Position numbers: made by a program | Source: a virus | Lineage: Duplodnaviria; Heunggongvirae; Uroviricota; Caudoviricetes | IMG/VR virus record: IMGVR_UViG_2684622670_000009 | Span: 1 to 64,000 of that record | Strand: one strand, 5' to 3' | DNA: 64,000 bases | Shown here: positions 54,501-57,500 of the stretch, piece by piece | Layout of the letters: every line of letters begins with the position of its first letter | Position numbering within the stretch: the stretch's first letter is position 1

Positions 54501-57500
54501 TTATTCAACTTATCCACAGCATAGATCCAATAAACAGATCCAAAAGAGAACCCTAGAAGATCCAAATAAGATCCCGGATCGCTGCAGGCCGCGCCATGTC
54601 TGGCCTGAAACGTGATCAACATTGACTATATGCGATTTTATGTTGACTGTACACGATTTATTGTTGACTACACGCGATTTTATGTTGACTATACGCGATA
54701 TAAACATTGACTGTACGCGATTTTAAAGCCTGAATATTCACAGCTGTTGATAACAGCCATCCAAATTGACGTCAGGCCGCGCCACACATGGAGAAACCAC
54801 GATGCCGGAAGAAAGTAAAGGCTTCCTTAGCGTTGAAGAAGTTGCAGGAAATACAGGAGAAATCCACAGCCTGAAACCCAATAACAACAGCACTATACAA
54901 CCCATCGCTTTGTTGCGCTTAGGTGTGTTTGTGCCAACCTTAAAATCTACCAATGTGGCACTACGTCGCGGATCGTCAGTTACTACAAACACAACGAACG
55001 CAACCGAAGAACTATCAAGCCTCAAAATTGTTGAGCAGGAAGGCTATGAGGGAATTGAAATTCATGGTCCACGCCTGGATATGGATACTGATTTTAAGGT
55101 GTGGGTGGGCATAACCTCCGCGTTGTTTGACTATGCACCTGATGATGACGGTATAATTACCCTGCCATTCTCCGAGTTTGCCGATCGATGCGGCTATCCA
55201 CGTAAGCGCCTTTCAAAGGCGTTCCGTAAAAGTATTGATGACTCTCTGACACGCATTCAGCAGACAGTTGTCAAATTCCGCTTCCCGGCGGCAAAAGGTC
55301 ATCTCAATAACATTAACGTCAACTTGTTGGCATATAGCAGCCTGAATACCGAGCTTGATGTTATCGAGATCCAGCCGCAGAAACAGCTATCTGAACTTTA
55401 CTATGTTGACTATAAGCGAATCCTGAAGCTGAAGATGCTGGATAAGCTCGGGCGCAAAGAGACGGCCAAGGTACTGTATACATTCTTTGAGGCTCTACCT
55501 GCCAACCCAGCACCTGTCAGCATTGAGCGCCTTAGAGCAAGGCTTAACCTCAAATCATCCGTTAGCGTGCAAAATAGCGTTATCAGAAAAGCCATGAAAG
55601 ATTTGGAAGCTATTGAATATCTTAAATTTTCAGAGATAAAAAACGGCAGGAAAATCGGCTTCCAGATCCATAAGCGCAATCCATAATATTGACTATATGC
55701 GATAGCGAGAAGTTGACTATAGGCGACATTCGTTGACGCTGGTGGATTTTTGCTGGCGTCAATATTCTGCAAGTCGCTATTGAGATGGCTTTTAGGGTCA
55801 TTTCATCGCGTATAGTCAACGTTTCTCCCGACAATATCTTACATAGTCGATCTTTGGTGGAGTTAAATCGACTACAGTCAACTTTTGACTGTGGTCATAT
55901 CGCGCATAGTCAACTATTCACATTAACCTTCGCGCATAGTCAACATTTGCGCGGTTCTCATCAAGCAGTGGTATTGATATGCAAGAAGAGAAACAACACT
56001 ACCTCTACGTTCTGGTGCCGGAGAACGGAGATACTTTTAAAATCGGCATTTCATGTGGTCCATTGGCACGGTTTAAAGGGCTACAAGTGAGTCCCGATAT
56101 TGCGCTTTCACGAATCTATCGTGGTACGCGTTTGGCAATGGTTAATCTTGAGCGGGCTTTACACGCAACCTTTTTCCCCTGGAATGCGCCGTGGGAGAAA
56201 AGCGCCGGTGGCGGGCATACTGAATGGTTTACACGAGAGTGTCTTGATAAGGTTTTGGCTCATATCGAATATCTAAATGATATGTGGGGAGGGATTCTCG
56301 AGCTCATTAAGTCGAATGATTTACTTCAGCGTCCAGTAGATGCTGCTCGCTCTTTCGAAAAAGAGCTGGATGTTACTTCTATCGTGACTTTCAAAGATGA
56401 CGCAGGAATGAGGGATGTGGCTTATGTCTCCATATCTGGCTATGAACCGGACGCGATCCGCGCTCAATGTGAATTGCTGAAAGCAATGTTTATGCTTCGG
56501 ACTAAATATCCCTGGGAGACAGGGCGGGTGTGCTTCCCTATGGAAGAGTTAACCGCCACCATTGATTCCCAGCTTTACCACGATAATCCAGAGAAGTTTT
56601 TTAGCCTTTTAGCCGGTAATGGGCTTAACTGTGTGTCCGGGCTGGGGCGAAGTAGAATCCAACATGCCTCGCTCTTCGGTCCCTTTTTTTACGATCGACA
56701 CGGGTACTTTGAGGCTGAACTTCCGGCGCTTACGCGTGCTATAGATACTATCGATTTCGAACGATTATTCGCTGCTCTTAGCAAATAACACTGATGCCCC
56801 TGAACGGGGCTTTTTTGTGCCCTCCTTGTAACTATCAATCGTACAAAATGAACGAAACATGCAGAGAATGTTATGTACAAGCATCTACGCATACATTATT
56901 ATTTTATGCAGCATTTTTAATTAAATTCAAAAATACAGCATAAAGGATGACTTTCGATGAGTGATTCCAGCCAGCTTCACAAGGTTGCTCAAAGAGCAAA
57001 CAGAATGCTCAATGTTCTGACTGAACAAGTACAGTTGCAAAAGGATGAGCTACACGCGAACGAGTTTTACCAGGTCTATGCGAAAGCGGCACTGGCAAAA
57101 TTGCCTCTACTGACTCGAGCGAACGTTGACTATGCCGTAAGTGAAATGGAAGAAAAGGGTTATGTTTTCGATAAACGCCCTGCTGGCTCTTCAATGAAAT
57201 ATGCGATGTCAATTCAGAACATCATTGATATATATGAACATCGCGGAGTGCCAAAATACCGGGATCGCTACAGCGAAGCGTATGTTATTTTCATCTCCAA
57301 TCTTAAAGGCGGTGTGTCAAAAACTGTATCGACGGTTTCTCTGGCGCATGCAATGCGTGCCCACCCTCATCTTCTGATGGAAGATTTAAGGATTCTGGTT
57401 ATTGACCTTGATCCGCAATCTTCAGCAACGATGTTTTTAAGCCATAAACACTCTATTGGTATCGTAAACGCAACATCTGCACAGGCTATGTTGCAGAATG

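Follow-up and report, generated by a model that had tools for sequence, protein, structure and literature searches.

Why does a nuclease-like gene stand between the control iterons and the partition operon of a P1-like replicon? The question arises from a DNA stretch of 64,000 nucleotides (the window; positions 1 to 64,000 of the IMG/VR virus record IMGVR_UViG_2684622670_000009, Caudoviricetes). In it, an open reading frame (ORF) of 269 amino acids with an N-terminal T5orf172 domain lies downstream of the replication initiator gene repA and upstream of parA. An earlier note on this stretch had read the gene as an insertion between incA and parA and had suggested a selfish nuclease or a defence effector. 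The gene is a routine, annotated but unstudied part of one of two interchangeable replication modules, not a one-off insertion. Its product is probably a DNA-cutting enzyme fused with a domain whose predicted shape resembles the DNA-binding domain of replication initiators.

In E. coli and Salmonella, P1-like phage-plasmids are widespread vehicles of resistance genes; they have two replicon types, IncY and p0111. More than half of them, those of the p0111 type, carry the T5orf172 gene at the edge of an exchanged block. To our knowledge, no mechanism has been offered so far for the switching between IncY and p0111 on near-identical backbones. Among 193 Salmonella phage-plasmids, 17 such changes were inferred (PMC11165635).

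Exchange of the replicon cassette

The window was compared with the P1 reference genome (NC_005856, L001) by blastn. Window positions 51102-54604 align to P1 positions 1-3506 with 95.9% identity, and positions 56855-61990 align to P1 positions 4998-10143 with 97.5% identity. The 2.25-kb block in between (54605-56854) has a weak 59-nt hit as its sole P1 match. Its origin iterons differ in sequence from those of P1, and its repA belongs to the Rep_3/RepB family; control iterons, the T5orf172 gene and a terminator make up the rest. The P1 counterpart has a length of 1.49 kb and consists of the incC iterons, repA and incA. The left breakpoint is located within the P1 oriR (P1 3384-3625), past the part with DnaA boxes and GATC repeats and ahead of the incC iterons. 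On the right, the P1 annotation (Ppar, P1 5017-5045) puts the breakpoint about 20 nt ahead of the -35 element of Ppar. The RepA proteins of the window and P1 share 42% identity. ParA (100%), ParB (98%), gp23 (99%) and PpfA (99%) are essentially those of P1, but the block 54605-56854 differs; the window is therefore a P1 backbone carrying an alternative replicon cassette. The order of a Rep_3/RepB repA with flanking iterons followed by the gene, all between upfA/oriR-left and Ppar-parA, is that of the p0111-type cassette. The description of phage JL22 (PMC9603915) and the p0111 repB typing (PMC11165635) agree with this identity.

The origin of the window (54467-54720) is a hybrid. It is of the P1 type up to position 54604 (about 96% identity) and has five p0111-type iterons from position 54618. 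This places the left recombination boundary inside the origin itself.

In canonical P1, the annotation shows Ppar about 190 bp after incA without an intervening gene, in agreement with the earlier note. Neither a gene remnant nor a recognisable site was found in this incA-Ppar gap of P1. The supposed insertion between incA and parA gives way to the exchange of the whole 2.25-kb block, since the flanking iterons, repA and the incA-like iterons are also non-P1. A simple insertion into P1 was ruled out by this difference over the entire iteron-repA-iteron block. A compositional sign of foreign origin was ruled out as well, with a GC content of 47.3% for the gene and 47.1% for its surroundings.

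Divergent homologues in the same slot

The homologue search covered 5.8 billion clusters (word-indexed) and 1.84 billion representative proteins (exhaustive HMMER). Outside the p0111 clade, only three full-length relatives were found (P0004, P0009 and P0011). A word-indexed search with a 92-sequence profile added little. The identity to the window protein is 44% for P0004, about 27-30% for P0009 and 25% for P0011, the last with 40% in the N-terminal domain. All three are encoded in P1-like elements (L003, L006 and L007), where they are preceded by a Rep_3 repA and its distal iterons and followed by parA. Full-length homologues were found solely in P1-like elements and always in the slot from the repA-distal iterons to Ppar. 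They belong to four cassettes; from one type to another, the RepA identity is 41-48%.

L003 and L006 have nearly the same backbone (ParA 100%, gp23 99% and PpfA 99% identity). The RepA of L003 is p0111-like (84% identity to the window), that of L006 is IncY-like (83% identity to P1), and the T5orf172 proteins of the two elements are 28% identical to each other. The boundaries of the non-homologous block equal those of the window/P1 pair. In both independent backbone pairs, window/P1 and L003/L006, the gene marks the right-hand end of the exchanged block. A presence/absence polymorphism at this one locus is seen for the window versus P1, L006 versus P1 and L003 versus L006, and each time the gene adjoins the right breakpoint. 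The slot measures 213 bp in P1 and about 1 kb with the gene in L006. Because the L006 cassette, with its IncY-like RepA, has a homologue, canonical P1 is the exception. A conserved homologue at this position, which according to the earlier note would speak against its reading if found in P1 and relatives, is present in the relatives (about 400 plasmids, 12 phage records and three divergent lineages) and absent from P1. The simplest history is that of an old cassette-linked component, of which canonical P1 and IncY plasmids have no copy.

An IncY plasmid with a RepA 100% identical to that of P1 (NZ_ON934557.1) has a 400-bp gap without the gene. Among the IncY-type plasmids of PLSDB, tblastn gave no match with any of three family members. 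CP042620.1 has a p0111-like replicon (RepB with 85% amino acid identity) with the same iteron layout and no T5orf172 homologue. P1, the IncY plasmids and CP042620.1 do without the gene, which is therefore dispensable for replication.

Two of these elements have further peculiarities. Within positions 3000-5500 of CP042620.1, an oppositely oriented tail-protein gene comes after the replicon in place of the T5orf172 gene and parA, which represents a rearranged or different phage-plasmid context. NZ_ON934557.1 encodes a ParA of 401 amino acids and of another type despite its P1-identical RepA; L007 also has a 401-amino-acid ParA, with 57% identity to P1 ParA. As NZ_ON934557.1 pairs a P1-identical RepA with a different ParA, par modules are shuffled independently of rep modules.

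Distribution within the p0111 clade

The cassette is present at ≥95% identity in at least 392 (about 400) PLSDB plasmids, hosted by E. coli, E. albertii, E. fergusonii, Salmonella, Shigella and Klebsiella, and in 12 phage records, for example, SJ46, RCS47, JL22 and phi456. Across the approximately 400 plasmids and these four phages, the gene copies are 95-99% identical. In PLSDB, 391 of 402 copies are full-length. The relatives in RefSeq are annotated with an identical coding sequence of 810 nt, under the name 'GIY-YIG nuclease family protein' (e.g., WP_001154687.1). One phage record has the label 'T5orf172 domain-containing protein'. The protein matches PHROG 2876 over its full length (E = 2e-191), a family in the category 'unknown function'. 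The copy in JL22, gp57, was termed an 'unknown protein-encoding gene' (PMC9603915).

Inactivated copies are rare. NZ_CP136027.1 has a stop at codon 17. In phage vB_EcoM-673R5 (ON470615.2), the gene is frameshifted and split into two ORFs. Two more copies are broken: H124 matches as two pieces, and H126 keeps amino acids 99-269 alone. The replicon names of the p0111 plasmids clash between resources. For the plasmids L008-L021, MOB-suite in PLSDB gives 'IncHI1B', whereas the PlasmidFinder-based literature gives p0111, which could mislead surveys.

The literature search yielded no paper tying T5orf172 or GIY-YIG to P1-like elements and no analysis of the domains, the cross-cassette conservation or the role of the protein. 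The searchable papers on P1-like phage-plasmids never mention a nuclease, GIY-YIG or T5orf172. Already known are the gene as a database entry, its single appearance in the literature as an unknown gene and the cassette as the p0111 replicon type. The divergent homologues in one and the same slot of four or more replicon cassettes of P1-like elements, one of them IncY-like, appear to be new, as do the marking of the swapped-block edge by the gene in two independent backbone pairs and its evolution as a fast but maintained accessory gene. Probably new is also the predicted Rep-WH1-like nature of the unassigned half, which would make the protein a chimera of the Odn kind, with its initiator part from another family.

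The N-terminal T5orf172 domain

Amino acids 8-85 match the Pfam family PF10544 (T5orf172) with 26.2 bits (gathering cut-off 20, E = 1.1e-5). The reading of the N-terminus as T5orf172 holds, and the motifs cited for it, YLYVLVP, FKIGIS, R and GHTEWF, correspond to conserved columns of the family. Below the thresholds, the related Pfam families MUG113 and Tox-URI2 were matched, and PHROGs gave a weak match to an 'endonuclease' family too. PF10544 is also matched by 90 of 92 HMMER relatives. In the alignment of the 92 relatives, G23, R31, E58 and E82 are invariant, and Y10, K21, S44, H62, G79, T81, W83 and F84 are conserved in at least 90%. A PDB sequence search with the N-terminal family profile gave chance matches only.

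The closest functional reference is Odn, the gp88 protein of phage ICP1 (NC_015157). Odn is an experimentally shown nuclease, and its E180A mutant is catalytically dead (PMC8263062). The alignment of the domain to Odn by hhalign has a probability of 88.6% and pairs Y10, K21, G23, R31, E58 and H62 with Y127, K138, G140, R148, E180 and H184 of Odn. The N-terminal domain has the alpha/beta fold of GIY-YIG proteins together with the catalytic-type residues: the tyrosine of the first strand (Y10), the arginine (R31) and the glutamate of the helix after strand 3 (E58). On sequence grounds, it is a T5orf172 domain of the GIY-YIG superfamily with intact catalytic-type residues and likely has nuclease activity.

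The C-terminal domain

The C-terminal 150 amino acids had been left unassigned in the earlier note. This stands at the sequence level, where no family was found and the only relatives are the four P1-like proteins themselves; by predicted structure, the domain can now tentatively be assigned to a WH1, the first winged-helix (WH) domain of Rep initiators. The AlphaFold2 model was built from eight sequences and is of medium quality, with a predicted local distance difference test (pLDDT) score of 73. The score is below 50 at residues 117-126, and ten-residue blocks over 111-130 average 51-53. In the C-terminal domain, helices are modelled at 157-175, 188-194, 198-202 and 204-211. A strand at 183-187 follows the first helix, and further strands are located at 215-220 and 234-239. 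The modelled order of secondary structures fits a winged helix with extra strands.

A Foldseek search of the model against the PDB had RctB, the WH1 of MSBI1.176, RepE54 and pPS10 RepA on top, at non-significant E values of 0.04-1. The structure search of the model put the same proteins first, and winged helices of ORC/Cdc6 came further down. In BFVD, a 'COG5527 protein involved in initiation of plasmid replication' was matched with a probability of 0.97. Judged by topology, these Rep matches would map to the C-terminal domain, the query residues of the alignments being unreported. The commonest second Pfam domain in the T5orf172 subfamily is Rep3_N, present in 3 of 92 members with a best E value of 8.4e-14. 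Based on the fold matches and this Rep3_N frequency, the C-terminal domain is tentatively considered a Rep-WH1-like targeting domain.

The three subfamily members P0015, P0048 and P0034 combine T5orf172 with a C-terminal Rep_3 domain that is detectable in the sequence (Rep3_N; one also Rep3_C) and form a class of nuclease-initiator fusions. For P0015, the Rep3_N score is 29.9 bits at a cut-off of 22.4; its genomic context was not found in viral contigs. Other members of the subfamily have MarR-type or other winged helices (winged helix-turn-helix), ribbon-helix-helix domains or zinc fingers. A modular architecture of nuclease and DNA-binding domain has been described for T5orf172 homing endonuclease genes (HEGs; PMC10448857). 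An Odn-style sequence chimera with RepA was ruled out: the C-terminal domain was negative against five RepA proteins, and a RepA hidden Markov model was negative against 161 collected proteins.

The domain diverges fast. The C-terminal domains of the window and L003 are about 32% identical, though the two share iterons and have RepA proteins of 84% identity.

Evolutionary rates

Over their full length, the T5orf172 proteins of the window and L003 are 44% identical, compared to 84% for RepA, 89% for ParA and 48% for PpfA. Within the p0111 clade, the ratio of nonsynonymous to synonymous polymorphism (pN/pS) was determined for ten alleles, which were picked by the cassette-wide nucleotide rank regardless of this protein. 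The ORF is intact in all ten. The pN/pS of the gene is 0.34 overall, with 0.20 for the N-terminal and 0.55 for the C-terminal domain. The neighbours have values of 0.02 (repA), 0.01 (parA) and 0.14 (upfA). The synonymous diversity of the gene, 0.0195, is the lowest of the four genes, based on small counts. The gene is kept by selection, purifying yet relaxed: 391 of 402 copies are full-length, and its pN/pS of 0.34 is clearly below 1 but well above the 0.01-0.02 of repA and parA. It is far less constrained than rep and par, a profile that fits an accessory or conflict gene.

PpfA (window 53474-53896) also evolves fast. It has 48-66% identity to the proteins of L003, L006 and L007, whereas gp23 and ParA have 80-90%. 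In the p0111 clade, nucleotide diversity peaks in the left flank (53100-54600).

Proposed function

The gene may be an integral accessory part of the p0111 cassette that encodes a targeted endonuclease cutting a non-self site associated with replicons. This reading is offered tentatively, at a likelihood slightly below the halfway mark. The protein would comprise the T5orf172 catalytic domain, a flexible linker of about 25 residues and a winged-helix domain of WH1 fold. The analogy to Odn in particular, and also to I-TevI and the T5orf172 homing endonucleases of ICP1, suggests that the WH domain would most likely supply the target recognition. It may recognise DNA of the origin or iteron type, or a Rep protein bound to such a site, and the nuclease domain would cut near the bound target. 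A non-self target seems likeliest: a replicon allele that competes with this one or lacks the gene, the IncY cassette being an example. Cutting would benefit the cassette by excluding a competitor or by converting it into a nuclease-bearing cassette, the latter with upfA/oriR-left and Ppar-parA as the flanking homology for repair.

Odn provides the closest parallel. A domain copied from the RepA of a satellite binds the satellite iterons, and Odn cuts the origin (PMC8263062). Satellites evade Odn by swapping Rep/origin modules (PMC8263062, PMC10448857). Odn and the Odn-like proteins of the coliphages Inny, Muut and Mt1B1_P17 combine T5orf172 with an initiator-type DNA-binding domain, as is predicted here. 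The two also share a setting in which replicons are in conflict and exchange their Rep/origin modules in cassette form (PMC8263062, PMC10448857). In contrast to Odn, with its C-terminal nuclease domain, the nuclease domain is N-terminal here. The DNA-binding domain of Odn is RepA_N-like (Pfam DUF6945) and has 42% identity to the RepA of the target, whereas the predicted Rep_3 WH1-like fold is visible by structure only. Odn belongs to a lytic phage that attacks a satellite; the gene studied here is located inside the replicon cassette of a temperate phage-plasmid.

The arrangement of catalytic domain, linker and DNA-binding domain is shared with the ICP1 T5orf172 HEGs, the T4 Seg proteins and I-TevI. 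Where phages exchange blocks of sequence, T5orf172 nuclease genes have been reported at the block boundaries (PMC10448857). Like T5orf172/GIY-YIG HEGs, the gene shows a presence/absence polymorphism at a fixed locus and lies at the edge of a block exchanged between near-identical genomes (PMC10448857); the rapid divergence of the DNA-binding part is another common feature. Unlike 87% of the phage T5orf172 HEGs, which have CapR, DUF723 or DUF4397 zinc fingers (PMC10448857), the protein has none of these. Unlike sporadic HEGs, the gene is close to fixation in its cassette type and nearly always intact there. The protein is not an initiator. Rep_3 initiators (P1 RepA, F RepE, pPS10 RepA, MSBI1.176 Rep, and domains 2-3 of RctB) differ from it, as it has a single WH-like domain without a WH2, and this domain is fused to a nuclease domain.

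Several results weigh against a Rep-guided nuclease. The four C-terminal domains had no Pfam match at E values up to 10, including Rep3_N (PF01051), and a PDB sequence search with the C-terminal profile gave chance matches only. The comparison of the C-terminal domains with the five P1-family RepA proteins by BLASTP and hhalign was negative (best probability 0.2%). The promoter scan did not find a sigma-70-like promoter upstream of the gene on the + strand. Among the ten alleles, there is no sharp trough of diversity centred on the gene; nucleotide diversity is low over the whole range 54900-57700, without a clear signature of drive or sweep. A housekeeping role for the cassette would likewise be in keeping with gene copies that are uniform and almost always intact across the p0111 clade.

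Should the protein prove to be a Rep-guided nuclease, the principle of Odn, a nuclease that borrows the DNA recognition of an initiator, would extend from phage-satellite warfare to the competition of plasmid replicons, and replicon switching and the turnover of incompatibility types would become directly testable. A more far-reaching version considers the P1-like replicon as a homing cassette: the nuclease would read the rival origin/incA or the iteron-bound RepA, cut it and drive the conversion of IncY into nuclease-bearing cassettes. We consider this version unlikely. If true, it would explain the frequent IncY/p0111 switching by a nuclease-powered gene drive for the plasmid incompatibility type.

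Alternative explanations

The WH1-like domain might serve the cassette's own replicon. In a domesticated, non-cutting or only nicking replication-control factor, it would either attach to the control iterons next to the gene or form heterodimers with RepA through the WH1 dimer interface, thereby tuning the copy number or handcuffing, while the T5orf172 domain would act in DNA binding or as a structural element. Rep_3 initiators such as pPS10 RepA and RepE dimerise through their WH1, and T5orf172 was first described as a DNA-binding domain. The position 31 nt past the incA-like iterons, the lack of a terminator after repA and of a recognisable own promoter, the strict linkage to repA cassettes in four lineages and the broad co-divergence with the RepA type, in which window and L003 are closest for both proteins, are consistent with such a factor. 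CapR is a precedent for a HEG-derived part domesticated as a repressor, but CapR has the DNA-binding part of the HEG only, without a nuclease domain (PMC10448857). A control factor would not explain why the catalytic-type residues are invariant across the subfamily, with E58 equal to the essential E180 of Odn, and why the N-terminal domain is under stronger constraint than the C-terminal domain. P1, the IncY plasmids and CP042620.1 replicate without the gene, and the low identity of the window and L003 C-terminal domains ill suits a shared self target. Overall, a control function is the main alternative but has a low probability; it would add a new accessory component to the iteron replicon.

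A role as cargo, as an anti-phage or anti-plasmid defence effector that acts independently of the replicon by stand-alone cleavage or abortive infection, is improbable. T5orf172/GIY-YIG domains recur in conflict systems, and the fast evolution and raised pN/pS are in line with defence. Phage-plasmids have been reported to carry defence genes (10.1101/2024.06.18.599647). However, no family of PADLOC-DB v2 was matched at E values up to 1, NCBIfam gave no match, and the single gene has no partner genes. Mobile cargo would vary in its context, whereas the full-length homologues among the 1.84 billion representative proteins and 5.8 billion clusters are confined to the repA-parA slot of P1-like elements, and the fold-level match of the targeting domain is to replication initiators, not to generic sensors. 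Of the two roles suggested in the earlier note, the selfish nuclease is the most plausible class, and the defence effector found no support in PADLOC. A relic of a selfish HEG, which invaded an ancestral cassette and now hitch-hikes without activity or benefit, has also very little likelihood. It would agree with the relaxed constraint relative to the neighbours, the occasional nonsense and frameshift alleles (NZ_CP136027.1 and ON470615.2) and the absence from canonical P1 and CP042620.1. A dead gene would not last, however, in the same position across four cassettes at 25-44% identity, and the full-length state of nearly all copies, a pN/pS well below 1 and the invariant catalytic-type residues contradict decay. 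Hardly probable at all is the literal, recent insertion of a single gene into the incA-parA gap of a P1-type replicon. The P1 gap is small, and the homologue in the IncY-like L006 demonstrates that presence/absence of the single gene occurs. Against this insertion stand the non-P1 repA and iterons beside the gene, the uniform GC content, the absence of insertion-marking repeats or remnants and the co-divergence with the cassettes.

Organisation of the locus

The ORF was confirmed in the window sequence exactly where the earlier note had placed it, on the + strand and with an ATG start. It begins 31 nt past the last of six iterons downstream of repA. The reported terminator of the gene was found as a G+C-rich, terminator-like hairpin, GCCCCTGAACGGGGC with a T-run, at 56796-56810, 8 nt after the end of the ORF. 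Its folding energy is -11.9 kcal/mol (z = -2.5 versus shuffles). There is no terminator between repA and the T5orf172 gene, and co-transcription is possible. The repA gene is annotated in RefSeq as 'RepB family plasmid replication initiator protein'. The features are listed in Table 1.

Table 1. Features of the replicon region and its flanks in the window.
Feature	Coordinates	Strand	Remarks
Left flank: P1-type oriR part (DnaA-box/GATC-repeat)	54467..54604	+	Common to canonical P1; AGATCC repeats 54536-54575
Alternative p0111-type replicon cassette	54605..56854	+	Takes the place of P1 incC iterons, repA and incA (L001 3507-4997)
Five origin iterons, core TTGACTATACGCGA, spacing 21-22 bp	54618..54720	+	Repeat search
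repA, Rep_3/RepB-family initiator, 294 amino acids	54802..55686	+	Pfam Rep3_C 27.1 bits, Rep3_N 21.8 bits; PHROG 775
Control (incA-like) iteron array	55685..55948	.	Two direct copies 55685-55726, four inverted 55806-55948
T5orf172 gene, complete ORF, 269 amino acids	55979..56788	+	
N-terminal T5orf172/GIY-YIG-superfamily nuclease-like domain, amino acids 1-102	55979..56284	+	
Inter-domain linker, amino acids 103-127	56285..56359	+	Low model confidence
C-terminal domain, amino acids 128-269, and stop codon	56360..56788	+	Predicted winged-helix fold like Rep_3 initiator WH1
Intrinsic-terminator-like hairpin and T-run	56796..56818	+	Stands between the gene and Ppar
Right flank: Ppar/operator and parA (56957-58153)	56855..58153	+	P1 homology restarts at 56855

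An additional iteron-like copy is located inside the repA coding sequence (window 55402-55419), with 94% identity to the reference iteron. It is kept in the 77%-identical replicon of CP042620.1, around position 3896.

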